Assembly: GCA_963530265.1 (NCBI GenBank)
Contig: CAUSCO010000026.1
Location: forward strand, 5,138-69,137
Length of the DNA stretch: 64,000 nt
Direction of reading: 5' to 3'
From: an uncultured Bacillus sp.
Lineage (GTDB): Bacteria > Bacillota > Bacilli > Bacillales > Cytobacillaceae
Shown here: piece by piece, positions 14,051 through 49,531 of the stretch
Position numbering within the stretch: position 1 is the stretch's first letter
Layout: the number at the start of each line of letters is the position of its first letter
Notes under the pieces: model-generated
Seen by the model: the letters and a program-made list of their open reading frames with translations, nothing else
Database searches by the model: none
Told to the model about the DNA's origin: nothing
Translations under genes and position numbers: made by a program

Positions 14051-14310
14051 AAAAAACCCGCCCCATGGTTATAGGGACGAGTTAGCTCGCGTTACCACCC
14101 TACTTCCGCAACTAAATAACAGCTGCGGCTCTCGATCAACGTACATCTTTCTCGTACGTGGTCCCTGTTAACGGCGGACTTTCCGGTATAGCTTACTTCA
14201 GGGTTCAGCTATACATCTCGGAGATGATCTTCAGATAGTCTTGTTATCGACTCCCACCACCCGTCGACTCTCTATAAACAACGAACATTTCCTACTCTTC
14301 TCGTCATCAA
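14051..14310 (-). ncRNA. T-box riboswitch with Ile (AUC) specifier
   Basis: AGAGA and GGUG-type stem I motifs, GAAGAUC specifier, T-box AGGGUGGUAACGCG, terminator ...ggggcgggUUUUUU; TTGACA promoter at 14354-14359. Confidence 0.92.
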
Positions 14311-14425
14311 TTTATATCTAATTTTAAATAAGGTTACCACCGAAAAAAAACTCTGTCAATATATTTTGATAATTATAACTTTTTGGTCAATTTTAAAACG
14401 CTTTCACGGTAAAAATAGGAAAAAT

Positions 14426-31932: not shown

Positions 31933-33180
31933 TTAACTTGCTTTTGTACTTGGTGATAGGCTGCGAATTTCCTTGTGGTTCTTTTTATCTTTCGTTTTAG
32001 GATTCCCATTACCTGGAGACTTGATGATCATGGCAATAAGAACAGAGATGATACTTAAGACAGCAATCAGTTTAAAGGTAGGTATGAAACCTCCTAGGGA
32101 AGAAGCAATAAATGATCCAGAGATGGCACCAAGACCGAAGCCTTGATAAATGATCCCATAGTTTTTTTCCTGATTTTTCAAGCCAAAGAAATCTGCTACA
32201 ATGGCTGGGAATACAGTGATATTACCACCAAAACAGAAGGCAATTGCGGCGACACTTGTAAAGAATAACCCATAATTCAATTTAACAAAACTTAATACCG
32301 TTACTGCCGCTGCTGTTACTAGTAGTGCGCCTGATACCACTTTTAACCGGCCCACTTTATCAGATAATGCTCCAAGGATAATACGTCCACTTGTATTAAA
32401 AATCGCCACTAAAGCTACAGCATTACTTGCTGCTGCAATATCAAGTCCAGCCAATTTAACACCTATGTCTTTCACTATTCCGATTAAGAATAAGCCACTC
32501 ATACATGCTGTAAAAAAAATCACAAATAATAAATAGGCTTCCTTCGTTTTCAGCATTTCTTTGACAGTGAAATCCTTCTGGATCCTGCCATTTACAGTTT
32601 TTGGCTCCTGACTAATTTTTGCTTCCCGTACAAGGAATGAACCTCCTACGACCAAAATCAGGACAATTAATCCCCAGTAAAAAAAGGCTTGGGAAACACC
32701 AACCGATTGAATTAGTGACCCGTTAATAAACTTGAATAACAGACTTCCTGTTCCATACGCTCCAACAGAGATTCCAGAAATAAGTCCTTTTCTTTCCGGA
32801 AACCATTTAATTAAATTAGATAACGATGTAATGTAGGCTGTTCCATCTGCTGCCCCTACAACAACACCTGCCAAAATGTAAAGTATCCACAATGATGATG
32901 CCTGAGAACTGATCATTAGTCCTGCTCCGAGCACAATACCGGCACAAGCGATTAATCGGCGAAGTCCCCATTTATCTTGCAGCTTTCCGGCAAACAAAGT
33001 AGACAATGCCAAGGCTAAGCTGGTTATGGAAAAAGTAAAAGCAACAGAATTTAACTTCCATCCAAAGTGGTCTACTAACGGCTGGTTAAAGAGGCTCCAC
33101 GTGTAGATCGTACCTAACCCCATCTGCACGATGATTGTCCCTAAGACAATCAACCATCGACGATCTGTACTTGTTTTCAT
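31933..33180 (-). CDS. OFA-family MFS transporter (YhjX-like)
   Basis: LGTIYTWSLFN, KWFPERKGL, GNITVFPAIV.DFFG. Confidence 0.9.
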   Translation of the reverse strand: MKTSTDRRWLIVLGTIIVQMGLGTIYTWSLFNQPLVDHFGWKLNSVAFTFSITSLALALSTLFAGKLQDKWGLRRLIACAGIVLGAGLMISSQASSLWILYILAGVVVGAADGTAYITSLSNLIKWFPERKGLISGISVGAYGTGSLLFKFINGSLIQSVGVSQAFFYWGLIVLILVVGGSFLVREAKISQEPKTVNGRIQKDFTVKEMLKTKEAYLLFVIFFTACMSGLFLIGIVKDIGVKLAGLDIAAASNAVALVAIFNTSGRIILGALSDKVGRLKVVSGALLVTAAAVTVLSFVKLNYGLFFTSVAAIAFCFGGNITVFPAIVADFFGLKNQEKNYGIIYQGFGLGAISGSFIASSLGGFIPTFKLIAVLSIISVLIAMIIKSPGNGNPKTKDKKNHKEIRSLSPSTKAS

Positions 33181-33282
33181 TGCAATCTCCTCTTTTCTTT
33201 CGTATATATGGTTATGTTCATCATTAGAAATCTTTTATATGATGATAATACCACCGAAAAAAAGATGGAAACCGTTTTCAGA

Positions 33283-33313
33283 ATGAAATGCCTACTATTC
33301 GGAATGAATGGAG
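33283..33313 (-). promoter_or_regulatory. LytTR (YpdB-type) direct-repeat operator
   Basis: CTCCATTCAT-N11-GGCATTTCAT upstream of the MFS gene. Confidence 0.7.
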
Positions 33314-33314
33314 G

Positions 33315-34082
33315 TTATAGCTGCATAATTTGTCGAAAAGCTTTTACTTTGCTTCTACTGACCGGAATTTCCACTGTAATATCCTTCAAACGCACCATAT
33401 AGGTTTGATTAAACCATGGCACAATTTCATGAATTTTAGTCAAATTAACTGTATAGGATCGGTGACATCGAAAGAAAAGGTCCTCAGGAAGTAGAGATTG
33501 GAATTCTGTGATGCTCATCGGCATAGTATACTCCTCCTTCTGAGTATAAACCATGGTTACCTTTTCACTTGCTACAGCGTAATAAATGTCGTTTACATCC
33601 GTTACAATAATTTTATCGTTCTTCTTTAAATTGATACGATTTGAGGCCTTTGTATGTGTTTCTCCTCCCAGAACATGTGCAGGCTGATTTTTTTCTGGAA
33701 TGATCGCTTGTGTCTGTTCTCGTATGTAGGCAGATTCCAGCCTATTTAACATCGCGGCAATCCGTTTTTCATCATAGGGCTTTAAAACATAATCAAAGGC
33801 CTCTAGTTCAAATGCCTGTGCCGCATGCTCCTTATAGGCAGTGGTAAATACAATGTACGGTCTTTTTGTAAATTTACTTATGGTACTAGCTAATAGCATC
33901 CCATCAAGAGACGGAATATTAATATCCAAGAAAATCACATCTGTTTCTTGCCCCTGCAAAAATTTTAATACATCCAAACCATCATCAAAGAAATCAGTGA
34001 CTTCGATGTCACTATAAGTTTCGACTAAATACTTCAGTTCCTCACGAGCTGGAACTTCATCTTCCACAATAATTGCTTTCAT
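33315..34082 (-). CDS. LytTR response regulator (YpdB-like)
   Basis: REC domain [16 protein letters not shown]; Lyt[16 protein letters not shown]. Confidence 0.92.
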
Positions 34083-35743
34083 TGGTGGTTCTCCTTTTCA
34101 ATATCAAAAAAAACTTCAGTTCCAGGGAATAGACGGTGTATCACCAAACCATTTCCATAGATTAGTTTCACTCGCTGGTGAACATTATATAAGCCAATTT
34201 TGTTGGGCGGTACATCATCCTGCTGCACCTGACGAATTACTTCTTCGCAGATCCCAGCACCTGTATCTTTGACACTTACTCTTACTTTGTCCCCCAAATC
34301 TTTAACCGCAATCGTCACAACACCTGGACCTTTTACCTTAAGAATGCCATGAATAATGGCATTCTCGACTAATGGTTGAATGAGTAGGCTGGGAATGCTT
34401 ACATTCACATTGTCGATATCATATTCAACCGTCAATCGACTGCCAAAACGGGCCTTCTCTATTTCAACATAATCCCGGACTTGCTGTAACTCTTTTTGGA
34501 TATCAATTAATTCATCACTCACCTCTAAATTGTATCGCATATAGCCAGAAAGATTGATAATCAATTCACGCGCTTTTTCGGGACTCCTTCGTGTTGTTGA
34601 GGCGATGGCATTCAGTGCATTAAACAGAAAATGCGGATTAATCTTCGTTTGCAGTGCCTTCAGTTCCGCCTTGTTAGCACCTTCCTTAATTTGTTCAATC
34701 CGGGAAATCTCCATAAGCGTGGATATAATTTGTGATAGACCGATGGCCATCGTTTGCAGTGAATAGGACATCTTATAGGCCTTCTGGTAATAGATTTTGA
34801 GTGTTCCTGTTACCTCACCATGCTCCTCAAACGGCATAATGAGGAGGGAGTGGATTTGTGGTGTCTTTTCATCGGTCACATTATTCCGGATAATAATTTT
34901 TCCACTGTGAATGGCCTCTTTTGAAAAATCACTGATAATTTCCTGTCCAATTGAATATCGCTCTTCCCCAAACCCAACATATGCGAGTACATTATGGGTA
35001 TCCGTAATGGCTACTGCGTCGGCCTTTATATCGTTTTTAATAATAGTGCAAATCTTCCGCAAAGAATCAGAATTAATAGACCGAAAGTAAGGCAAGGTCT
35101 TGTTCGCAATATCTAATGCTAACTTTGCTTGTCTGGCAGCGATTATTTCCTTTTCACCCTCGACACTCATAACTAATAAGACAATCAGGCCTATGTTCAC
35201 CTCTCCAACAATCATTGGGAAGGCAATTTTAGAAACGATATCAAACCCCAATTCAAACGGATTTGCCATTGCAAGAATCAGCAGCATCGTTAAGACTTCG
35301 CAAAACATTCCTGCTGCTATTCCATAAACCCAACGTAACGTTCTCTTCACTCTTCGGTTAATATACCCAGATACAATCCCAGCAATAATGCTTGTAATTA
35401 GGCATGGGATTGATGTAATCCCTCCAATATCAATCAAATATCGATGCACACCCGAAACAATGCCGGTAATGATTCCTACCCACGGTCCAAATAAAATACC
35501 GCCTGACACGACAGCGATAATCCTGACATTTACGAGTGAACCTTCCACATTAATCCCTGAATACGTGCCAAAAATTGCAAATAAGCAAAACACAAGTGTA
35601 ATAACAACGTGCTCTATAGGGGAATGACTGTTCTTTTGCAAGGATTCCTTGAATCGTGGGATACGTATCATAAAAAACAGGCAGATCAAGAGGAGTGCAG
35701 CCCGTTCAAATAAGTTGATTAGCATATCTATTGATGTATTCAT
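34079..35743 (-). CDS. LytS/YehU-family sensor kinase (YpdA-like)
   Basis: 5TM-LYT N-terminus, [25 protein letters not shown] overlap with the regulator. Confidence 0.92.
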
Positions 35744-38524: not shown

Positions 38525-39391
38525 TCAAGTAAAAACAATGGTTTTATTTCCATGAACAATTACTTTATCTTCAACATGCCAGGAAACGGCTTCGGCAAGA
38601 ACCCTTTTTTCCACATGACGTCCCGCAATCTTTAAATCTGCTTGCGTATAGCGATGATTAATCCTCTGTACATCTTGCTCAATAATTGGACCCTCATCTA
38701 AATCATTGTTTACATAGTGTGCAGTAGCTCCAATTAACTTCACTCCGCGGTTAAACGCTTGTACATAAGGGTTCGCTCCAATAAATGCTGGTAAGAAAGA
38801 GTGATGGATGTTAATGATTTGGTTTGGAAACTTAGAAATAAAATAGGGGGAAAGAATTTGCATGTATCTCGCCAGTACAATAAAGTCTACTTTCCCCTTC
38901 AATAGTTCTAATGCTTCCTGTTCTGCATCTTCTTTTGTTTCTTTCGTCAATGGAATATGATAAAAAGGGATTCCGTAACTCTCAACTACTTCTTTTAAAT
39001 CCACATGATTACTGATCACCATAGGGATTTCCACTGGAATTTCCTTCGATTTCCACCGCCAAATAAGTTCCATAAGACAATGATCTGTTTTTGAAACAAA
39101 GATAGCCATTCGCTTCCTTTTTTCTTTACTGCTCAACTGCCAATCCAGAGCATATTCTGGCGCCATCACATGTAAATCATGTTCAAGTTTTTTAAATGAA
39201 GAATCGAAGTCTTCCAAATGAAATTCTATCCGCATAAAAAATTGGCCTGCATGTGGATCTGTGGTATGTTGGTCAAAATGCACAATGTTAGCTTTGTGTT
39301 CTAATAAAAAGTTAGTTACCGTCGAGATAATACCAGGCTTTTCTGGACAAGAAATTAATAATTTGGCACAATTAACATTTCGTTCTAACAC
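38525..39391 (-). CDS. purU: formyltetrahydrofolate deformylase
   Basis: ACT N-terminus, FFMRIEF, VLARYMQIL, INIHHSFLPAF.GA.PY. Confidence 0.95.
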   Translation of the reverse strand: MLERNVNCAKLLISCPEKPGIISTVTNFLLEHKANIVHFDQHTTDPHAGQFFMRIEFHLEDFDSSFKKLEHDLHVMAPEYALDWQLSSKEKRKRMAIFVSKTDHCLMELIWRWKSKEIPVEIPMVISNHVDLKEVVESYGIPFYHIPLTKETKEDAEQEALELLKGKVDFIVLARYMQILSPYFISKFPNQIINIHHSFLPAFIGANPYVQAFNRGVKLIGATAHYVNNDLDEGPIIEQDVQRINHRYTQADLKIAGRHVEKRVLAEAVSWHVEDKVIVHGNKTIVFT

Positions 39392-39466
39392 AATGCATTT
39401 CCTCCATTCATATGAAATTTATACTACTCGTTCTGTACCTCTTTCTTGCATCATAGCATCCTTCGA

Positions 39467-39772
39467 TTAATCTATTTCAATTGCACATGCACTTGAAGCA
39501 AAACTCTCTCCTACGAGAAAGCCATGTTCATCGGAATAATCAATTTGCGTTTCTTCATCTAAATAACGTTTTGTAAAGCGATCTATCCGAAACTGGATCC
39601 CATTATATTCAATGACCGTATCGTTTCGTCGCAGTTCATCAAAAACAAGCGAAAATTTGACAGATAGGCCGCATCCGCCAGCTACATCGGCATCAATTCG
39701 AGGAAAGTGTTCTCCCTTCAACTCCATTGCTTTTAGCTTGTTCCATGCAGCTTCTGTTAATGTTATAACCAT
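39467..39772 (-). CDS. HesB/IscA-like Fe-S cluster biosynthesis family protein
   Basis: ITLTEAA, GGCG, D......G..F.ID, IDY; lacks the canonical C-terminal CGCG. Confidence 0.7.
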   Translation of the reverse strand: MVITLTEAAWNKLKAMELKGEHFPRIDADVAGGCGLSVKFSLVFDELRRNDTVIEYNGIQFRIDRFTKRYLDEETQIDYSDEHGFLVGESFASSACAIEID

Positions 39773-39911
39773 CGAATCCTCTCCCTCTCGTCGATGTCCA
39801 ATCTATGAACAGTCATGAAGTTTTGGTTATTTTTAAACCACCAAGAATGACAGTGTAAGAAGATTCATGTCTCCTAACATTCATTCCCGGTGGCTTTTGT
39901 TCAATTATTAT

Positions 39912-41396
39912 TTATGACTTTACGGTTTCTCTCTTTACTTCTTCTTCTTTTGTATAACGTAAAATTGGTTGTCTTGCTGCTTGTACTTCGTCCAATCGAC
40001 CAATAACCGTAGTATGTGGTGCATCTAATACGATACCTGGATTTTCTTCCACTTCTTTAGCAATTTGAATCATCACATCCGCAAAAGCATCCATTGTTTC
40101 TTTTGACTCTGTTTCTGTTGGTTCAATCATCAAACATTCCTCTACATTAAGTGGGAAGTAGATGGTAGGTGGATGGTAACCAAAATCAAGGAGACGTTTT
40201 GCCATATCAAGTGTTCTTACACCAAGCTTCTTCTGTCTAGAACCAGATAACACAAATTCATGCTTACAAATTTGTGAATACGGTGCATCAAAATACGGCT
40301 CAAGTTTTTTGCGCAAATAATTCGCATGAAGCACTGCACTTTCCGACACTTGACGTAACCCTTCAGCCCCCATTGTGCGAATATACGTGTACGCACGCAA
40401 TAGAATACCAAAGTTTCCATAATACCCTTTAACTCGACCAATAGAAAGCGGTTGGTTGAAATCTAGCACATATTCCTCATCCACTTTTTCAACCCGCGGT
40501 ACTGGTAAAAACTGAATCAGTTTCTCTTTAACACCGACTGGACCTGCACCTGGGCCGCCACCGCCATGAGGTGTTGTAAATGTTTTGTGAAGATTTAAAT
40601 GCACAATGTCAAAGCCCATTTGACCTGGAGTTGTTTTCCCTAAGATAGCATTGGCATTGGCTCCATCATAATATAATAAGCCGCCTGCTTCATGAACAAC
40701 CTTGGCGATTTCTACGATTTCCTTTTCAAAAAGCCCGAGGGTATTCGGATTTGTAAGCATCAACGCTGCTGTATGATCATCTACATGCTTCTTTAATTCT
40801 TCTAAGTCGACTAACCCATGCTCATTGGATGGAATTGTTATGGTATCAAAACCAGCAACCGATGCACTTGCAGGGTTTGTTCCGTGTGCGGAGTCTGGTA
40901 CAAGAACTTTCGTTCTCGTCTCGCCTTTTTGTTTATGGTAAGCTTTGACCATCATTAACCCTGTCCATTCACCTTGAGCTCCTGCTGAAGGCTGTAATGT
41001 CACTGCATCCATTCCTGTAATGACAGCTAACTCTTCTTGTAATTCATATAAGACCTCTAGCGCACCTTGTACCGTTCCAGTTGGCTGGTATGGATGAATA
41101 CGGCTAAACCCTTCCAATCGTGCTACGTCTTCATTTATTTTCGGATTGTACTTCATCGTACAAGAGCCAAGTGGATAAAAGCCATTATCGATCCCATGGT
41201 TTTTATTCGAAAGCGCTGTGTAATGACGAACAAGCTGTAACTCTGATACTTCCGGGAGTTCTGCTGGTACGTCACGAATCAAATGCTTCGGAAGTTTATC
41301 ATTTATATCAACATAATCAACATCACTTTGTGGAAGGCTTGCACCAACACGTCCTTGACGACTGATTTCAAAAATTAGATCATTATAATCAACCAT
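39912..41396 (-). CDS. gcvPB: glycine decarboxylase P protein subunit 2
   Basis: [27 protein letters not shown]. Confidence 0.96.
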
Positions 41397-42741
41397 TAAC
41401 AGCTGCCTCCAATACCTCGATAAATTGGTCAATCTCTTCTTTTGTCCGCTGCTCTGTCACTGCTAGTAGCATTTGATTTTCTAAGCCGTAATCCGTTCCT
41501 AAATCAAACCCACCGATGATACCGGCTTCAAGAAGTTTGGCATTAACTTCCTTGACCGGACGAGGAAGCTTAACAACAAATTCATTAAAGAATGGGGCAT
41601 TATTCATAATGGTAAAGCCTTTATTATCTAAAGATTTTGCCATGTAATCGGCTTTTTCAAAGTTTAGTTGAGCCATTTGACGAATTCCTTGCTTCCCAAG
41701 TGCACTCATACAAACTGCAGAAGCAAGTGCATTCAATGCTTGGTTTGAACAAATATTGGATGATGCTTTCTCACGGCGAATATGTTGTTCGCGTGCTTGC
41801 AGGGTTAGTACAAATCCAGGTTGTCCTTTCTCATCTGTCGTTTGCCCTACAATTCGTCCTGGGATTTTTCGCATTAATTTCTTACTTACTGTAAAATAAC
41901 CACAGTGCGGACCGCCGAAGGACATAGGGATTCCTAATGGCTGCATATCACCAACCACAATATCTGCCCCGAATTTCCCCGGTGCCTGCAGCAATGCTAG
42001 TGCCAAAGGATTGGCACTTACAATTAAAAGCGCTCCTTTTGTATCCGCTATACTTTTAATTTCTGCTAAATCTTCAATGGAACCGAAAAAGTTTGGGTAT
42101 TGAACTATAACAGCAGCAGTGTCTTTATCAATTTGTCCTTGTAGCTTCACTAAGCTTGTTTCATCAGCAGTAAGATTGACGTCTTCAACAATATAACCTT
42201 GGCCATCTGCTACCGTATTTAAAATGGCACGTGATTCAGGATGAACTGCCTTTGATATAAGCACTTTTGAACGTCTTGTTGATGCAACGGCAAGTGATGC
42301 AGCTTCTGCAAGAGATGTAAAGCCGTCATACATCGAAGAATTGGCCACATCCATTCCTGTCAACTCACAAACCATGGTTTGAAATTCAAAAATCGCCTGT
42401 AATTCACCTTGGCTGATTTCCGGTTGATATGGTGTATAGGCTGTGTAAAATTCGGAACGAGAAATCATATGATTGACCACACTTGGAATATAGTGATCAT
42501 AGGTTCCCGCACCAAGAAAGGTTGGGTACTGATTAGCATTCTTGTTTTTGGAAGCAAGCTGATTCATTTTTTTCAATAAAAGTGGTTCAGGGTCCGCCTT
42601 TGGGATATTTAGCTCACCTTTTAGTTGAATTTCAGCTGGAATATCTTCAAATAACTCATCTATAGAAGAAATATTTAAAAAAGAGAGCATTTCCTCTTGA
42701 TCCTGTTTCGTATCAGGGAGGTATCGATAAGTTGACGTCAT
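41389..42741 (-). CDS. gcvPA: glycine decarboxylase P protein subunit 1
   Basis: [28 protein letters not shown]. Confidence 0.96.
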
Positions 42742-42742
42742 T

Positions 42743-43138
42743 TTATTCCTCTCCTTCATGAATAAAGGCTTGGTACGCATCTTCATTTAATAGGGATTCC
42801 AACTCTTCTGGATTTGACATTGCCACTTCTACTAACCAACCTGCTTCAAATGGATATTCGTTTATCGTTTCAGGAGCATCTTGTAAATCCTCGTTCACAG
42901 TAACAATCGTACCGGATACAGGAGAGTATAGTTCAGAAACTGCTTTTACTGATTCGATGGTTCCCATTGATTCATTCGCTGTTACTTCACCATCCACTTC
43001 TGGAGTTTCAACAAAGACGATATCCCCTAATTGCTTTTGTGCATAATCAGAGATGCCAATCCGTACGCGATTTCCGTCTAATTGTAATACCCACTCATGT
43101 TCTTTGCTGTATAGTAAATTTGCTATAGCATTTGTCAT
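42743..43138 (-). CDS. gcvH: glycine cleavage H protein
   Basis: YSKEHEW, lipoyl-Lys motif IESVKAVS. Confidence 0.95.
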
Positions 43139-43239
43139 TGTATTTTCTTCCTTCCGACTGTAAATTAGAGTTTGATCATTCAGCTAATTGGATTACCTAC
43201 CTTCTTTAAGCAAGTTAAAAAGAGAACTCTATCACTCTA

Positions 43240-44352
43240 TTAACCTTTTTTATAAAACGGTGTTTTAACAACAACAGCATCAATCTGTTTATTACGGATC
43301 TCCACTTTAAGTGGTGTCCCCACTTCTGAGTGTTCCGCCGAAATTAGTGCAAGACCTATGCTTTTCTTTAATGATGGTGATTGGGTTCCAGATGTAACAA
43401 CACCAATATCCTCTCCACCTTCAGAAACTACCTTATAACCGTGACGTGGAATCCCCCGGCCTGTTACTTCAATTCCTACTAATTTTCGTTTTAATCCGGC
43501 TTCTTTTTGTGCTGAAAGTGCGGTTTTACCAATAAAATCACTTTCTTTATTCGTTTTAACGGCAAAGCCGATTCCTGCTTCAAGCGGACTTATATCGCTT
43601 AATAGCTCTTGACCATAGAGTGCAAGACGTGCTTCTAATCGAAGCGTGTCACGTGCACCAAGTCCACATGGCTTTAAGCCATCTTCACTTCCCACTTCTA
43701 AAAGCTTTTCCCAAAGTGCTTCTACTTGCACAGCGGATAAATATAGCTCAAAACCATCTTCTCCTGTATAACCGGTACGCGATACTAGCACATCAGTAAT
43801 CCCGTCAAGGTTGACATGCTGAGCAAAATTAAATGATCTAATTTCTGATAAATCTGTTTCCGTTAACTTTTGTAAAATTCCTTCAGCCTTTGGCCCTTGG
43901 ATGGCAAGCTGAACTATTGTCTTCGAAATATTTTGGAGCGTCATATCTCCTTTTACATGCTGCTTCATCCATTCGTAGTCTTTTTCAATGTTTGAAGCGT
44001 TAATGACGAGTAAATATTTTTCATTCTCTAATTTGTAGACTAATAAATCATCGACCGTTCCGCCGTCTGGATAGCACATTGCGGTATACTGTGCCTGATT
44101 GATGCTAAGCTTTGTCACATCGTTTGTTACAAGGTAGTTAATATAGCTTTCTGCATCTGTCCCTTCCACAAGCACTTCCCCCATATGAGAGACATCAAAC
44201 AATCCTGCTTCCTTTCGGACAGCTTCATGTTCATCTAAAATGCTAGAAAACTGCACGGGCAGTGCCCAGCCTCCAAAATCAATGACCTTGGCACCAGATT
44301 TTTTATAAACTTCAAATAGCGGTGTTTGCTTTAACGCTGTTTCAATACCCAT
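43240..44352 (-). CDS. gcvT: glycine cleavage T protein (aminomethyltransferase)
   Basis: [31 protein letters not shown]. Confidence 0.96.
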
Positions 44353-44367
44353 TGATATACCCCCTAC

Positions 44368-45252
44368 CTAAGATTTCCGACAAAATAGTCGTTCCTTAAC
44401 CTGTTTGCCTGTTTCTGTCGTTGCGAGACCACCAAGTGCTGTTTCTCGGAGTGTCCGAGGCATTTCTTTTCCGACCCTATACATCGCTTCTATCACTTCA
44501 TCACAAGGAATGCGGCTTTCAATCCCAGCAGGGGACATATCGGCCGCTGAAAATGCGATGGAGGTTCCAATCACATTTCGTTTAATACAAGGCACTTCAA
44601 CAAGTCCTGCGACTGGATCACAAACTAAACCTAAGAGTGACTTCATGGCAATAGCAGTGGCATTCACAGCTTGTTGTGGGGTGCCCCCTTTTAACTCAAC
44701 GATTGTTCCCGCGGCCATGGCTGTTGCGGATCCTACCTCAGCTTGACAGCCTCCAGCCGCCCCCGAAATGAAAGAACGGTTCGCTATGACAAATCCGAGC
44801 ATACTTGCTGTAAACAACCCCATGACTAAATCTTTATATGGTGTACCATCATTTTTATGAAGTGAAAACAATACACCAGGCAAAATACCAGCTGCCCCAG
44901 CCGTTGGAGTAGCCACAATGACCCCCATTCGTGCATTACTTTCAGAAGTTGCCAATGAAAAGCTCATTGCATTGCTTATATACTTTCCTGAAAGAGATTT
45001 ACCTTGTTGAACATAATTAGACATTTTCACGGCATCTCCGCCAGAAATTCCACTCGGTGCAGTTGATGTATCTTTTATACCGCTATCAACGGCTTCTTTC
45101 ATTTTGATCAACCGCTCTTCCATCATGCTAATAATGGTTTCTTGGTCTCTTCCTGACTTTTCTGCTTCCATCATCAACATGATTTCACCAATGGTTTTTT
45201 GTTCGTTTTCACAAGCTACAATCAGCTCTTTCATGGACTGAATCTCCATCAT
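44368..45252 (-). CDS. sdaAA: Fe-S L-serine dehydratase alpha subunit
   Basis: ATPTAG, GGCQAE, GLVCDPVAGLVEVPC (three Fe-S Cys). Confidence 0.93.
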   Translation of the reverse strand: MMEIQSMKELIVACENEQKTIGEIMLMMEAEKSGRDQETIISMMEERLIKMKEAVDSGIKDTSTAPSGISGGDAVKMSNYVQQGKSLSGKYISNAMSFSLATSESNARMGVIVATPTAGAAGILPGVLFSLHKNDGTPYKDLVMGLFTASMLGFVIANRSFISGAAGGCQAEVGSATAMAAGTIVELKGGTPQQAVNATAIAMKSLLGLVCDPVAGLVEVPCIKRNVIGTSIAFSAADMSPAGIESRIPCDEVIEAMYRVGKEMPRTLRETALGGLATTETGKQVKERLFCRKS

Positions 45253-45770
45253 ATTGCCTCCATAAGGGACTTTGCACCTCGGTTGATTATGAAACTAGCA
45301 ATGTCTCTAAAGTCATCGACTGCACTTAAACGAATATCTGCTTTCTCCTCGTCAACCATAAAGATCTTGGATAAACCACCACCAAGTGATGCGCCGCCAA
45401 CTTTTACAACACGATCGCCGCATTTTGCTGTCACGATTGTTGTATTTGGATGGTCATAATATTCGCAAATGTCTTTAAATTGGAAATGGTACTTCATGCC
45501 AACCTCTTTTGCCCATTCCAACGAATGTTTAATTCGTGTATCATCGGTATCCATCCCAAGCAAACCACCAAGAAGTGCTTTATCTGTTCCATGTCCTTGA
45601 TAAGTTTCAGCAAAGGAATCATAAAATACAATATTGGCCTCTTGTGGACAATCACCCAATAGTTCATAAATGAATTTTCCGATGGATACGACCCCTGCGG
45701 TATGAGAACTCGATGGTCCCACCATAATAGGGCCAATAATGTCAAAACAACTCTGAAATTCCATCCTCAT
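45249..45770 (-). CDS. sdaAB: L-serine dehydratase beta subunit, short form without ACT domain
   Basis: IIGPIMVGPSSSHTAG, GHGTD.AL, HPNT, S.GGG; only 173 aa. Confidence 0.88.
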   Translation of the reverse strand: MRMEFQSCFDIIGPIMVGPSSSHTAGVVSIGKFIYELLGDCPQEANIVFYDSFAETYQGHGTDKALLGGLLGMDTDDTRIKHSLEWAKEVGMKYHFQFKDICEYYDHPNTTIVTAKCGDRVVKVGGASLGGGLSKIFMVDEEKADIRLSAVDDFRDIASFIINRGAKSLMEAI

Positions 45771-45779
45771 GCCCCTTTC

Positions 45780-47030
45780 TTAAACAGTGACTGCCTGTTG
45801 AAATAACGGATAGGCTTCACAAATCGCTTTGGTTGTTTCCTTTGCTTCCTCAAGTACGGCTTTATCCCCTTTGCTCTTCAGAACAGCTGCAATTACTTTC
45901 CCGATTTTCACCATTTCATCCTGCTTCATACCGCGTGTCGTTAAAGCTGCTGTCCCCATACGGATACCGCTCGTAACAAACGGCTTTTCCGGATCATATG
46001 GAATCGTATTTTTATTTACGGTAATACCTGCTTCTTCTAATAATTTTTCTGCTTCTTTTCCAGTTAGATTCCACGGACGTAAATCTAAAAGGACAATATG
46101 ATTATCCGTTCCACCAGAAACAAGAGCGGCCCCATCATTTATTAATGTTTCACCTAAGGTTGCAGCATTTTCAATGATTTGTTTCGCATAATCCTTAAAA
46201 CTTGGCTGCAATGCTTCCTTAAAAGCAACCGCTTTAGCTGCAATAATGTGCATGAGCGGCCCGCCTTGAATCCCTGGGAACACCGATTTATTGATGGCTT
46301 TTATCATCTCATCATCGTTTGTTAAAATAATGCCGCCGCGCGGTCCTCTCAACGTTTTATGTGTAGTGCTCGTTACAACATCCGCATATGGAACTGGCGA
46401 TGGATGAAGACCAGCTGCAACAAGTCCCGCAATATGTGCCATGTCCACCATGAATTTTGCACCAACTTGATCAGCAATTTGTCTAAACCGTGCAAAATCA
46501 ATCGTCCTAGGATAAGCACTTGTACCGGCAATGATCAATTTCGGCTTTTCTTTTTTCGCGATCGCTTCCAGTTCATCATAATCAATTAATTGAGTATCTT
46601 CATTCACACCATAGGATACAACCTCAAACCATTTTCCTGAAACACTAACAGGACTTCCGTGAGTTAAGTGGCCTCCATGTGAAAGGTTCATGCCCATCAC
46701 TTTATCACCAGGCTGAAGCAGTGCGAAAAATACTGCAAAATTTGCTTGTGCACCTGAGTGAGGTTGAACGTTTGCATATTTAGCACCAAATAGCTTTGTT
46801 AGGCGCTCAATGGCTGCTTTTTCTGCTACATCGACAAATTCGCATCCGCCATAGTAACGCTTACCAGGATAACCTTCTGCATATTTATTTGTCAGCACGC
46901 TTCCCATTGCTTCTAATACATCCTGGCTTATGAAATTTTCTGATGCGATCAACTCCAATGTTTGATGTTGACGTTGCCTTTCTTTTTCAATTGTTTCAAA
47001 AATGGTTTGATCATTCGTTTGCAAACTCAT
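45780..47030 (-). CDS. glyA: serine hydroxymethyltransferase
   Basis: [40 protein letters not shown] before ATG 47030. Confidence 0.97.
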
Positions 47031-47092
47031 TCTTATTTCCTCCTCTATTTGGATAGAGCTGCCAGTCCATATTATGTTCCTTTTTTGCACAC

Positions 47093-47322
47093 AAAAAAGG
47101 ACAGAAAAGGGTAATGGCAACATTCCCTTCTCTGTCCTTTTACCTGAGAGTTTAACTCTATACAAAAAGAGTCTTCCCCTTTGGTGGCATGTTATTAATG
47201 CGCTCTCCAGAGTTGCGTCCAATTGTGGTTCTTTCTACCTGAGAGATTTGTTCCAAGGGTTTTTTTGGAACTTGCTCCTTCGGTGGCTCGTCGTATTGCA
47301 CTCTCCCACAACCGTCATCCGC
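47093..47322 (-). ncRNA. tandem glycine riboswitch (ON) with terminator, upstream of glyA
   Basis: Two aptamers GGAGAG..CACCGAAGG..CUCUCAGGUA, kink-turn leader GGAUGA/GGACGC; terminator stem overlaps aptamer-2 P1 (aaaaggacagag). Confidence 0.95.
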
Positions 47323-47346
47323 GAATATTGAATTTTTATTATATTT

Positions 47347-47397
47347 AGAATAATTGGTGATTATAGTAATGTCAATGTTTTTTTGTAAGCGTCAACA
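47347..47397 (-). promoter_or_regulatory. sigmaA promoter plus cre-like site for the glyA operon
   Basis: TTGACA(47370-75)-N17-TATTCT; TGTAAGCGTCAACA at 47384-47397. Confidence 0.55.
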
Positions 47398-47437
47398 ATT
47401 CATCTTCTAAAATTCTTGGATTTTTGTTCGTTGCCTC

Positions 47438-48826
47438 TTAATTTTCTACAACCTTTTCCTGAATTGTTAGATCATCATTATTCGCCTTCGTTGTTCGCAT
47501 TTTATAAATCGCAATTAGCAAAATAAACCAAACAGGAGTTACAAACAAGGCAACACGCGTATCTTCCGCAAGTCCAAGTATGACAAGAACGAACGCTAAG
47601 AAGGCAAGGATTAAGTAATTGGAAAATGGATAAAGCGGCAATTTAAATTTGTTCACTTTCGCTAGATCTGGTCTGGTTTTCCGGTATTTCAAATGGCTGA
47701 TGACAGTAATTCCCCAAATAAAGATAAAACATACTGTAGAAATACTTGTAATCAGCGTAAATACTCCTTCTGGCATAATATAGTTCAAAATAACGGTAAC
47801 TAGAATAACGACAGTGGAAAAGAACAGTGCATTTGAAGGTACTTGACGGGAATTAAGCTTTGCAAAGGGTACAGGTGCATTTTTATCTTTGGCAAGTGTG
47901 TATACCATCCGGCTTGTACTGAAGATGGCGCTATTACATGCCGAAGCTGCAGACGTTAGGACGACAAAATTGACAATTCCAGCAGCTACAGCGATACCTA
48001 CCGCTACGAAAACTTGGACGAATGGGCTTTTAGCTGGGTTGATGGAGCTCCAAGGATAAACACTCATAATGACAATAAGGGCGCCGATGTAGAAAATTAA
48101 AACCCGAATAGGAATATTATTGATTGCTTTTGGGATCACTTTTTCCGGGTCTTCAGTTTCACCTGCAGTTAGTCCTACAAGTTCAATTCCCACAAACGCA
48201 AACACCACCATCTGGAATGAGAGGATAAAGCCATTTATGCCATTTGGAAACATGCCGCCGTGTCTCCATAGATTCGAGAAACTAGCTTGACCGGAATTTG
48301 TGGAAAAGCCTTTAATAATCATGAAAATTCCGATCACAATTAGTGCTAGAATCGCAATGACTTTAATTAAAGCGAACCAGAATTCCATTTCACCAAAAAG
48401 TTTTACAGTTGCAAGGTTCATGATTAGCAAAAGGACAAGTGCAATTAGTCCTGGCATCCACTGTGGTACATCAGGAAGCCAATACTGAGTATAGAGACCA
48501 ACAGCAGTTAAGTCAGCCATTGCAATTGAAATCCAGCAAAACCAGTAGGTCCAGCCAGTGATAAATGCGGCCATATTACCAAAATAGTCCCTTACAAAGT
48601 CGACAAAAGAATGATATTTCAAATTGGTTAAGAGGAGTTCTCCAAGTGCACGCATGATTAAAAAGCAAATGATCCCTGTAATCAGGTAAGCAAATAAAAT
48701 CGATGGTCCCGCTAAATGAATAGATTTTCCTGCCCCCAGAAATAATCCTGTTCCGATTGCTCCGCCAATAGCGATTAATTGCACGTGTCTATTTTTTAGA
48801 CCTCTTGACAATTTTTGTTCCTGCAT
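47438..48826 (-). CDS. APC amino acid permease (CycA/AapA-like, Gly/Ala/Ser)
   Basis: GLKNRHVQLIAIGGAIGTGLF, FGEMEFWFALIKV; lies in the glycine locus. Confidence 0.88.
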   Translation of the reverse strand: MQEQKLSRGLKNRHVQLIAIGGAIGTGLFLGAGKSIHLAGPSILFAYLITGIICFLIMRALGELLLTNLKYHSFVDFVRDYFGNMAAFITGWTYWFCWISIAMADLTAVGLYTQYWLPDVPQWMPGLIALVLLLIMNLATVKLFGEMEFWFALIKVIAILALIVIGIFMIIKGFSTNSGQASFSNLWRHGGMFPNGINGFILSFQMVVFAFVGIELVGLTAGETEDPEKVIPKAINNIPIRVLIFYIGALIVIMSVYPWSSINPAKSPFVQVFVAVGIAVAAGIVNFVVLTSAASACNSAIFSTSRMVYTLAKDKNAPVPFAKLNSRQVPSNALFFSTVVILVTVILNYIMPEGVFTLITSISTVCFIFIWGITVISHLKYRKTRPDLAKVNKFKLPLYPFSNYLILAFLAFVLVILGLAEDTRVALFVTPVWFILLIAIYKMRTTKANNDDLTIQEKVVEN

Positions 48827-48949
48827 ATGATTTCACTCCCCCTATTTATCTAGGATAATTAAAATAAAATAATTCATATTTATATCCTGTAAAAGTTTAA
48901 TATTTTATCAGTCAATTTGGCTATAAAACGCTTACATTTTTAAGTAAAA

Positions 48950-49127
48950 TAAAATCCTCATTAGGACCAGCAAGTTCCGGTGAGTCCAATTCTGTCATAC
49001 TGAATTCCTATTCCAATAATGCCTCCAATCCTCAGCATATCCAAATTAAAGTTTCAACTTTTATTAACCTGAGTGGAATCGAAAAAGAAAGTCCCAAATT
49101 ATTAGTTTTGTGTTTAACTCCTCCTTT
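48950..49127 (-). pseudogene. relic of an APC amino acid permease 5' end
   Basis: Strong AAAGGAGGAG RBS without a start codon; broken frames read IGGIIGIGI..LTG and ELAGP. Confidence 0.45.
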
Positions 49128-49154
49128 TTTTCTTATATCTATCTTTCTCCACAC

Positions 49155-49358
49155 AAAAAAGGACAGAGAAAAATAGGGAATTTCCTATTTTTCTCTGTCC
49201 TTTTACCTGAGAGTTTAACTCCTTTGGTGGCACATGGCTCTCTCCAGAGACGCGTCCTATTGTGGTCCTTTTACCTGAGAGATTGATCTCCCAATTTTTG
49301 GGACTTGCTCCTTCGGTGCTAAACAAATCGTTTAGTCTCTCCCACAATATTCATCCGC
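49155..49358 (-). ncRNA. second tandem glycine riboswitch with terminator
   Basis: Same two-aptamer architecture; TTGACA(49402-07)-N17-TAGTAT promoter; long terminator stem followed by U6. Confidence 0.93.
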
Positions 49359-49531
49359 TATTGATTTATTTAATATAAATACTAGAGTATAGCAAGGATG
49401 ATGTCAATTGAATATTCAGAATTTAGATATAATTTTTAATTTACTCAACCTTATTCATCATGAAATAAGTACAAACCGTTGGCTGTTTTGAAAAAACTTA
49501 ATGATATTTCTTTATCAATACATTAAAAGGA

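Follow-up and report, generated by a model that had tools for sequence, protein, structure and literature searches.

We analyzed a 64,000-nt stretch of contig CAUSCO010000026.1 (assembly GCA_963530265.1, uncultured Bacillus sp.), hereafter called the window. Its minus strand (48826..38525) carries a cluster of genes for a glycine cleavage system (GCS), serine hydroxymethyltransferase, and L-serine dehydratase, headed by two tandem glycine riboswitches. The ten co-oriented genes listed by the initial annotation are all present in the order given there, i.e., an APC-family permease, glyA, sdaAB, sdaAA, gcvT, gcvH, gcvPA, gcvPB, a HesB-like gene, and purU. All ten frames are open and each is provided with a ribosome-binding site. 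The permease gene is separated from glyA by 407 nt, and from glyA onward the gaps are 9, −4, 15, 101, 1, −8, 139, and 75 nt. The junctions, described earlier as short or overlapping, are so from glyA to gcvPB but looser at the tail (139 and 75 nt). Also as annotated before, the locus contains no folD, L-protein, or lipoylation gene; folD, lipA, lipM, and lpd are all absent from it.

PurU, GcvPB, GcvPA, GcvH, GcvT, SdaAA, and GlyA pass their NCBIfam cut-offs. The CycA-like permease likely mediates glycine uptake. SdaAB is not of the full-length Bacillus subtilis type, as it scores 142.5 bits against the TIGR00719 equivalog, under the cut-off of 161.2. Operon-type SdaAB proteins have 149–160 residues after the GPSSSH motif, against 205 in five long-type copies, making them about 50 residues shorter at the C-terminus in all 42 copies counted. 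The missing C-terminal extension is presumably an ACT domain. A strong hairpin without a U-tract follows gcvPB and possibly serves as an mRNA stabilizer or attenuator between the catalytic core and a support tail; judged by eye, inverted repeats of two unrelated sequence types occupy this position in 26 aligned loci. No stable terminator was found at the gcvT-gcvH (z +1.2) or hesB-purU junction (z +0.3), and no clear one after purU (z −1.6).

The tandem glycine riboswitch previously noted ahead of glyA matches RF03166 over its full length (99.8 bits, E 3e-21), and so does a second tandem switch ahead of the permease (107.6 bits, E 3e-23), both scores lying under the RF03166 gathering score of 110. 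Three of the four aptamers pass the gathering score of RF00504, the exception being aptamer 1 of the glyA switch, for which no match was reported. The hallmarks of a tandem switch are present, namely two aptamers with GGAGAG, CC-A-GG, and CUCUCAGG cores and a GGAUGA leader. The CUCUCAGG core is kept in 50/50 aptamer-1 and 49/50 aptamer-2 copies of glyA leaders. Both switches are predicted to be of the glycine-ON type because each terminator starts with the 3′ strand of the aptamer-2 P1 helix. A strict terminator motif occurs in 9/9 permease leaders and 44/55 glyA leaders, and the remaining 11 of the latter keep the hairpin with small changes, as judged by eye. The source genome holds four glycine-switch loci in total; a 60%-identical permease paralogue (G000 C20:31569-33162) is preceded by a single glycine aptamer of 50 bits. 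Past its terminator, the permease leader continues for about 330 nt (48827-49150, minus strand), compared with 106–318 nt in relatives, and contains a strong GGAGGAG sequence without a start codon behind it.

Putative sigma-A promoters precede both switches. The promoter call rests on conservation because the promoter and terminator scan by itself performed at chance level (30 sites versus 30.0 expected from shuffles); the pattern of the main promoter is shared by 42/50 related leaders. Upstream of its −35 hexamer lies the catabolite-responsive element (cre)-like site that had been suggested before. It is conserved well beyond the shuffle expectation, a box with at most one mismatch to TGWNANCGNTNWCA being present in 29/50 glyA leaders, kin among them not being independent, versus 0.4 expected. 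The source genome encodes, elsewhere, a CcpA over the profile cut-off. The box sits 6–9 nt upstream of the TTGAC-17-TATTCT promoter in 22 leaders and 18–19 nt upstream in seven, giving two spacing classes at about −50 and −60, one helical turn apart, where the numbering refers to predicted start sites. A further cre-like box (at most two mismatches, 111–152 nt before the start codon) is found in 7/9 permease 5′ untranslated regions (UTRs). The coordinates of all features are compiled in Table 1.

Table 1. Features of the glycine operon, in window coordinates and in the direction of transcription.
Feature	Position	Strand	Remarks
Putative sigma-A promoter, permease leader, TTGACA-17-TAGTAT	49379..49407	-	10/12 match; placed by position
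Tandem glycine riboswitch 1, leader GGA kink-turn type, ahead of permease	49191..49358	-	RF03166
Intrinsic terminator, permease leader	49152..49203	-	-31.3 kcal/mol, z -9.9; 5′ arm is the aptamer-2 3′ P1 strand
cre-like box, permease 5′ UTR, roadblock position	48923..48936	-	2 mismatches
Permease, APC-family, CycA-like, 462 aa	47438..48826	-	best match NF008272, 622 bits, under 732 cut-off
cre-like box, 8 nt upstream of glyA -35 hexamer, about -50	47384..47397	-	TGWNANCGNTNWCA match
Putative sigma-A promoter, main operon, TTGACA-17-TATTCT	47347..47375	-	pattern shared by related leaders
Tandem glycine riboswitch 2, ahead of glyA	47128..47322	-	RF03166
Terminator, glyA leader, overlapping aptamer-2 P1	47093..47139	-	-28.1 kcal/mol, z -6.5
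glyA, serine hydroxymethyltransferase, operon clade, 416 aa	45780..47030	-	NCBIfam and tree
sdaAB, short beta chain, 173 aa	45249..45770	-	TIGR00719 profile 1-138/208 only
sdaAA, Fe-S L-serine dehydratase alpha chain, 294 aa	44368..45252	-	NCBIfam; private L241P
gcvT	43240..44352	-	NCBIfam
gcvH with lipoyl-lysine motif	42743..43138	-	NCBIfam
gcvPA	41389..42741	-	NCBIfam; private R308P
gcvPB with pyridoxal phosphate (PLP)-lysine motif	39912..41396	-	NCBIfam; private P296Q
Hairpin 3′ of gcvPB, strong, without U-tract	39835..39896	-	z -6.3
lipA deletion junction	39790..39810	-	homology to relatives ends at about 39803, inside the lipA ribosome-binding site
HesB/IscA-fold gene, 101 aa	39467..39772	-	PF01521; two invariant cysteines, C34 and C96
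Spacer at the lpdA (dihydrolipoyl dehydrogenase, L-protein) position of relatives	39392..39466	-	lpdA absent
purU, formyltetrahydrofolate deformylase with ACT domain, 288 aa	38525..39391	-	NCBIfam

Every enzyme of the operon has a housekeeping paralogue elsewhere in the genome, with sequence identities of 46–69% (GlyA 64%; GcvT, GcvPA, and GcvPB 66, 61, and 69%; GcvH 59%; SdaAB and SdaAA 46 and 52%; PurU 52%), and the permease has the 60%-identical paralogue mentioned above. The housekeeping gcvT-gcvPA-gcvPB genes reside on C7 with their own tandem switch. Other parts of the genome supply lipA, four lpd paralogues, folD, three lipoate ligase or transferase genes, fhs, and three fdhD genes. Operon and housekeeping copies fall into two clades with a support of 100 in both the GlyA tree (82 rows, quick IQ-TREE) and the GcvPB tree (48-row subset, FastTree), each midpoint-rooted, and same-genus genomes contribute one copy to each clade. 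Together with the presence of the operon in only 9/24 same-genus genomes, the separate clades and housekeeping paralogues support the proposal, made earlier from the window only, that the operon is an accessory second-copy locus.

A comparison with these relatives revealed what the window copy has lost. Seven of the nine same-genus carriers possess the permease, glyA, sdaAB, sdaAA, gcvT, gcvH, gcvPA, gcvPB, lipA, the hesB-like gene, lpdA, and purU; another lacks sda and has a truncated permease, and the last one carries a monomeric sarcosine oxidase instead of the permease and no purU. One further genome retains the permease region only. In the window, homology to the relatives breaks off within the lipA ribosome-binding site and picks up again at the hesB-like gene, with only a spacer where lpdA would be located. 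The direction of the change is indicated by L030 and L058, which keep lipA remnants at the same junction. A gain of lipA and lpdA by the relatives was rejected on account of these remnants and of the window GcvPB, which nests among lipA-bearing copies. We therefore regard the window copy as a shortened version of the operon from which lipA and lpdA have been deleted, and it would depend on the housekeeping LipA, LipM, and Lpd. The term "self-contained", which the initial annotation used, is hence wrong for this copy, which relies on outside genes more than the copies of its relatives do. The hesB-like gene shows 89% DNA identity to L030 and 77% to L067, at variance with the 88–92% identity of glyA-gcvPB to L067, which suggests recombination between operon copies, even though the hesB-like gene tree has few columns.

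A GTDB scan with the HesB-like alignment identified 67 loci, mostly in records named Neobacillus, Peribacillus, Oceanobacillus, Halalkalibacter, Evansella, Domibacillus, Priestia, and related genera. Counted within a 10-kb flank, glyA is present in 59 of them, gcvT, gcvPA, and gcvPB in 56, gcvH in 55, sdaAA in 48 (five with a long-type SdaAB), lpdA in 44, lipA in 43, purU in 42, and the permease, which often lies past the flank, in 30. A glycine aptamer motif is located upstream on the same strand in 63/67 loci, the misses being three contig edges and one decayed copy. Among 400 genomes drawn from the order, about 4% are carriers. One copy resides on the mobilizable 179-kb plasmid NZ_CP071467.1 (the one strong match among 72,556 plasmids), where it adjoins genes for a BCCT transporter, a Rieske oxygenase, a solA-type oxidase, and a FAD oxidoreductase. 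Judging from the plasmid copy and the scattered carriers, the operon is mobile, horizontally spread, and patchily distributed. In genus g102 and others (e.g., G283, G307, G331, G353, G375, G396, G417), no GcvPB other than the operon type was found, and its gene stands in a simple riboswitch-gcvT-PA-PB(-hesB) arrangement; the housekeeping GCS was possibly displaced there, or these are the source lineage.

Sarcosine-oxidase-like genes occur within 10 kb in 9/67 loci, and creatininase, creatinase-family, and HxlA/B genes lie near several, suggesting that sarcosine, creatine, or betaine is a likely source of glycine in many carriers. The source genome itself has no close homologue of sarcosine oxidase (best 20%). 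A 137-residue protein without a Pfam or NCBIfam match (L025:15937-16350), with homologues in 6/67 loci, is encoded between a monomeric sarcosine oxidase and the glyA switch. Five Oceanobacillus loci (L032, L037, L038, L039, L044) are without the short sdaAB-sdaAA pair after glyA and carry a long-type pair after purU, apparently a re-acquired serine step. Three further loci (L206-L208 in G199, G253, and G393) have a glycine riboswitch directly ahead of a short-type sdaAB-sdaAA pair, while gcv, glyA, and hesB-like genes are missing from the neighborhood; by gene content, they are a glycine-controlled serine dehydratase alone.

The HesB-like gene encodes a small, so far unstudied protein. Its structure model (pLDDT 84) adopts the IscA fold, and Foldseek matched it to IscA, SufA, DsrR, ErpA-like, and YneR structures with a probability of 1.0 and TM-scores of about 0.56–0.64. 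Both cysteines, C34 and C96, are invariant in 67/67 aligned HesB-like sequences; the GGCG cysteine and the first C-terminal cysteine align with those of ErpA. The open reading frame scores under every NCBIfam cut-off for IscA, ErpA, and SufA, and the source genome encodes a separate three-cysteine SufA-type protein. A search of the ESM Atlas via the homologue P0006 led only to the family's own unnamed Fe-S_biosyn cluster, with leads below 0.9.

The link of this gene to glycine operons was assessed in a single draw of 400 genomes from the order, searched in three ways so that loci were not counted only via the HesB-like gene. The gene is present in 18/400 genomes and an operon-type GcvPB (at least 78%, separated by a gap from 74% or less) in 16/400. 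It accompanies 14/16 operon-type GcvPB genomes versus 4/384 others, where a single genus gives 7/16 of the former, so that they are not independent, and it is also carried by 6/6 genomes with an operon-type short SdaAB (at least 58%). The gene is kept in T-PA-PB-hesB, sdaAB-sdaAA-hesB, glyA-hesB, and hesB-purU operons and several times stands directly behind its own glycine switch. The link is not strict: the gene is absent from three distant riboswitch-sdaAB-sdaAA operons and from two operon-type gcv loci, and the copy in L117 lacks a glycine context. By these counts, the protein represents a family with two cysteines and the IscA fold that accompanies glycine riboswitches. In three Halalkalibacter loci (L057, L059, L060), the gene that comes next encodes a 391-residue FAD/NAD-binding reductase (PF00667 and PF00175), possibly an electron donor for Fe-S or radical S-adenosylmethionine chemistry.

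What this protein does may be approached through the needs of its operons. A dedicated client encoded in cis was rejected, as lipA is missing or partial in 24/67 loci and sdaAA in 19/67, with neither present in several. The need common to gcv-only operons (LipA for the lipoylation of GcvH) and sda-only operons (the SdaAA cluster) is an Fe-S cluster, which speaks for an Fe-S role. LipA consumes its own auxiliary cluster and requires carriers, and in B. subtilis lipoate is assembled on GcvH (PMC13692748). We give roughly even odds to the HesB-like protein being an Fe-S carrier. Slightly below that stands the fuller proposal of a dedicated glycine-riboswitch Fe-S carrier family supplying LipA, for GcvH maturation, and SdaAA, within a mobile operon in which a catabolic pathway brings along its own supply of lipoate, PLP, and Fe-S clusters, and which has become the sole GCS in some lineages. 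Two points weigh against an Fe-S function, namely the loss of the third A-type cysteine (CxC), which leaves the sequence without the C-x(n)-C-G-C pattern and with only two of the three A-type cysteines, and the fold shared with the non-Fe-S protein YneR/PdhI, an inhibitor of the E1 component in B. subtilis (PMC10090944). They raise the alternative that the protein is a YneR/PdhI-type binder modulating a lipoyl-dependent complex such as the P-protein or pyruvate dehydrogenase. In line with this, the gene usually stands after gcvPB where lipA is absent, and riboswitch-T-PA-PB-hesB operons have no Fe-S enzyme in cis. However, both cysteines are invariant, the gene is kept in sdaAB-sdaAA-hesB operons without a GCS (L094, L131, L133, L089, L091), and its neighbors are the cofactor-supply genes lipA, lipM-like, and pdxS, so we regard a PdhI-type binder, the chief competitor of the carrier reading, as unlikely. 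A complex prediction of the HesB-like protein with GcvPA and GcvPB scored 0.06 against a mark of 0.32 and counts neither way.

Several known systems resemble the operon. The gcs2 cluster of Pseudomonas aeruginosa (gcvH2-gcvP2-glyA2-sdaA-gcvT2), required for growth on glycine as the sole carbon source, is likewise a second-copy cluster of GCS, GlyA, and SdaA genes beside housekeeping paralogues (PMC4894688), and the window shares with it the co-oriented gcvT, gcvH, gcvP, glyA, and sda genes. The gcs2 genes are co-transcribed and serve glycine use as a carbon source (PMC4894688), as is predicted for the window operon. Whereas gcs2 is controlled by the activator GcsR with sigma-54 (PMC4894688), the window operon has a tandem riboswitch, a putative sigma-A-type promoter, and a cre-like box, with no regulator gene in the locus. 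Unlike gcs2, it also has split GcvPA/GcvPB and SdaAB/SdaAA, a permease, and the lipA-hesB-lpdA-purU tail of its family. The window operon is gcs2-like, not gcs2 proper.

Riboswitch-controlled versions of the route have been cataloged in actinomycetes. Streptomyces gcvT-gcvH-glyA-sdaA operons lie under tandem glycine riboswitches, with one row also containing gcvP and lipA (PMC12452182, Table S20; coverage of 24/59 COG1760 and 30/31 COG0112 matches), and a mycobacterial gcvBTH-glyA2-sdaA operon as well as glyA2-gcvTHP1P2 of Clostridium bolteae lie under a glycine riboswitch (PMC3766115, Table S1). Serine genes are rarely under a glycine riboswitch (PMC3766115). The actinomycete operons share the route and the class of RNA switch with the window, one of them even lipA, but belong to a different phylum, differ in gene order (glyA comes first in the window), and are not described as accessory or mobile second copies in the tables and text covered. 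The riboswitches that led the initial annotation to propose RNA control are thus real, but RNA control of this route is already on record in actinomycetes, the closest RNA-controlled analogue. The covered supplements of PMC3766115 gave no match for purU or lipA, and in that of PMC12452182, COG0788 (purU) and COG0316 (HesB) appear only in enrichment tables, not in the operon rows of Table S20.

The B. subtilis-type gcvT-gcvPA-gcvPB operon has the same switch logic, a tandem ON switch with a terminator over aptamer-2 P1, and the housekeeping copy on C7 has the same layout. In the window operon, by contrast, GcvPB and GlyA fall into clades of their own, and the gcv genes are linked to gcvH, glyA, sda, and support genes. 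Sarcosine catabolic cassettes of the glyA-soxBDAG-purU type, which spread horizontally and are tied to betaine or sarcosine breakdown, share GlyA and PurU as a one-carbon (C1) recycling pair (PMC3691474); the window has no heterotetrameric sarcosine oxidase and instead contains the GCS, Sda, and a glycine riboswitch. Among the relatives sharing the IscA fold (IscA/SufA/ErpA, DsrR, and YneR/PdhI), the HesB-like subfamily is distinguished by tracking glycine riboswitches. A survey of Bacillaceae classed tandem glycine switches as GCV or transporter and left an undescribed "GLY_MET" remainder, a label given in its S7 table to aptamers of Bacillus gobiensis and B. simplex (PMC6944388). The "GLY_MET" aptamers may be the switch of this operon, cataloged without description. 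In the literature and supplements searched, with subscription journals mostly outside and the supplements of PMC6944388 partly covered, we found no description of the Bacillaceae operon, its support tail, or the two-cysteine protein. The GCS-GlyA-SdaA route and its second-copy logic are already known from Pseudomonas gcs2, as is riboswitch control of the route from actinomycetes. New are a version from Bacillaceae that has a putative tail for cofactor supply (lipA and lpdA, in some loci also pdxS or a lipM-like gene), the short SdaAB, the conserved cre-like box in its two spacing classes ahead of −35, one helical turn apart, and the family of two-cysteine IscA-fold proteins that accompanies glycine riboswitches.

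With a probability of about 0.72, we interpret the locus as an accessory, horizontally spread, glycine-switched operon that burns glycine to pyruvate, the window copy borrowing lipoylation and the L-protein from housekeeping genes. Glycine would enter via the permease and switch on both leaders. In each, the glycine-bound aptamer 2 would fold P1 and sequester the 5′ arm of the terminator, allowing read-through into the permease and the glyA-to-purU transcripts. By established chemistry, the GCS would convert one glycine to CO2, NH3, NADH, and methylene-tetrahydrofolate (CH2-THF), GlyA would combine CH2-THF with a second glycine into serine and free THF, and SdaAB/SdaAA would turn serine into pyruvate and NH3. 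The net reaction would be 2 Gly + NAD+ → pyruvate + CO2 + 2 NH3 + NADH, with two NH3 rather than the single one of the initial annotation, which also had PurU recycle THF. GlyA itself regenerates THF, and purU is absent from many of the loci; as THF is balanced without it, PurU, with FolD in trans, would rather act as an overflow valve that releases excess C1 units as formate and keeps THF from being trapped. The tail would be a cofactor-supply arm made up of lipA, lpdA, and the gene for the two-cysteine IscA-fold protein, which most likely delivers Fe-S clusters to SdaAA and LipA. We read it so because pdxS, directly 3′ of the HesB-like gene in L043 and L046 (10321-11205), and a lipM-like octanoyltransferase gene (L044, L084, L085) are found there, too. 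CcpA bound at the −50/−60 cre box and in the permease UTR would repress the operon when glucose is present, which is what one would expect of a pathway that obtains carbon from sarcosine, creatine, betaine, or peptides; we favor repression over activation by a modest margin.

Several observations weigh against this interpretation. The sdaAA gene is missing or partial in 19/67 loci and purU in 25/67, so that the family can do without the step to pyruvate. The hairpin 3′ of gcvPB might separate expression of the tail from that of the upstream genes. The window copy bears private radical changes at otherwise invariant sites, L241P in SdaAA (48/48) and R308P in GcvPA (67/67), as well as P296Q in GcvPB (67/67) and R211Q and T228N in PurU (44/44), and may be in early decay. 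Finally, cre sites upstream of −35 activate as a rule of thumb, so the position of the box favors activation by CcpA, contrary to the repression step (PMC3463425).

The position of the cre box is the starting point of an alternative in which the operon serves glycine detoxification or nitrogen supply during sugar growth, CcpA activating the glyA promoter and pyruvate being overflow. The two spacing classes one helical turn apart and the many copies without sda are in accord with this, and the title of a study on Streptomyces griseus links the GCS to glycine detoxification. On the other side, the predicted inducible uptake permease, which has a second cre-like box in its UTR at a roadblock position, suits a system that imports glycine in order to use it. 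The −50/−60 phase is also off the activating phase of ackA and pta, which we take to lie near −56, and it extends instead the −27/−14 series of repressing sites (PMC3463425). This helical phase, the overlap of the box with an A-rich stretch upstream of −35, and the box in the permease UTR are the reasons for favoring repression, and we judge a detoxification or nitrogen role to be improbable, at perhaps one chance in five.

Somewhat less probable still is that the window holds a decaying remnant of the complete operon, with little flux left. The loss of lipA and lpdA would agree with decay, as would eight departures at near-invariant sites over the ten proteins, several of them radical, and other copies are plainly broken (L030, L045, L050, L056). 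Yet the ten reading frames with their ribosome-binding sites are intact, the catalytic motifs are kept, and both switches, the terminators, the promoter, and the cre box are preserved; the departures number 0–2 per gene, near the medians of 0–1 in other copies, and otherwise intact copies often do without lipA or lpdA. Operation in the reductive direction, from C1, CO2, and NH3 to glycine, serine, and pyruvate for formate assimilation, is very improbable: the same enzyme set is known to form the reductive glycine pathway and the genome has fhs, folD, and three fdhD genes, but the switches are predicted to be ON with glycine, an intermediate that such a route must make, PurU hydrolyzes formyl-THF, the neighbors are glycine-releasing catabolic genes, and fhs and folD, for which no direct search was made, were not recognized among the recurrent neighbors of the 67 loci.

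Two neighboring features of the window complete the picture of the region. About 3 kb downstream of purU lie a LytS/LytTR two-component pair (5TM-5TMR_LYT kinase and LytTR regulator) and an OFA-type major facilitator superfamily (MFS) transporter over the NF049980 cut-off (window 31933-35743, minus strand), which were not seen beside the operon in relatives; this module presumably resembles the pyruvate-sensing YpdAB-YhjX system of Escherichia coli. A T-box leader of 139 bits (window 14070-14316, minus strand) precedes an open reading frame at 14000-12699.

Considering the operon as a glycine-burning accessory locus, scattered Bacillaceae carry a transferable module that likely enables the use of glycine, and hence of sarcosine, creatine, or betaine, as a carbon source, a module that B. 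subtilis as the model organism does not predict. Being a natural GCS-GlyA-SdaA cassette from Gram-positive bacteria that is predicted to be co-regulated and includes a lipoylation arm, the operon would be useful for C1 and reductive-glycine engineering. The natural deletion series with and without sda, lipA, lpdA, and purU, together with the two-phase cre box, makes the individual steps testable by strain comparison. If the proposed carrier role is true, the two-cysteine family couples glycine sensing to the Fe-S supply of a self-sacrificing lipoyl synthase and of serine dehydratase.

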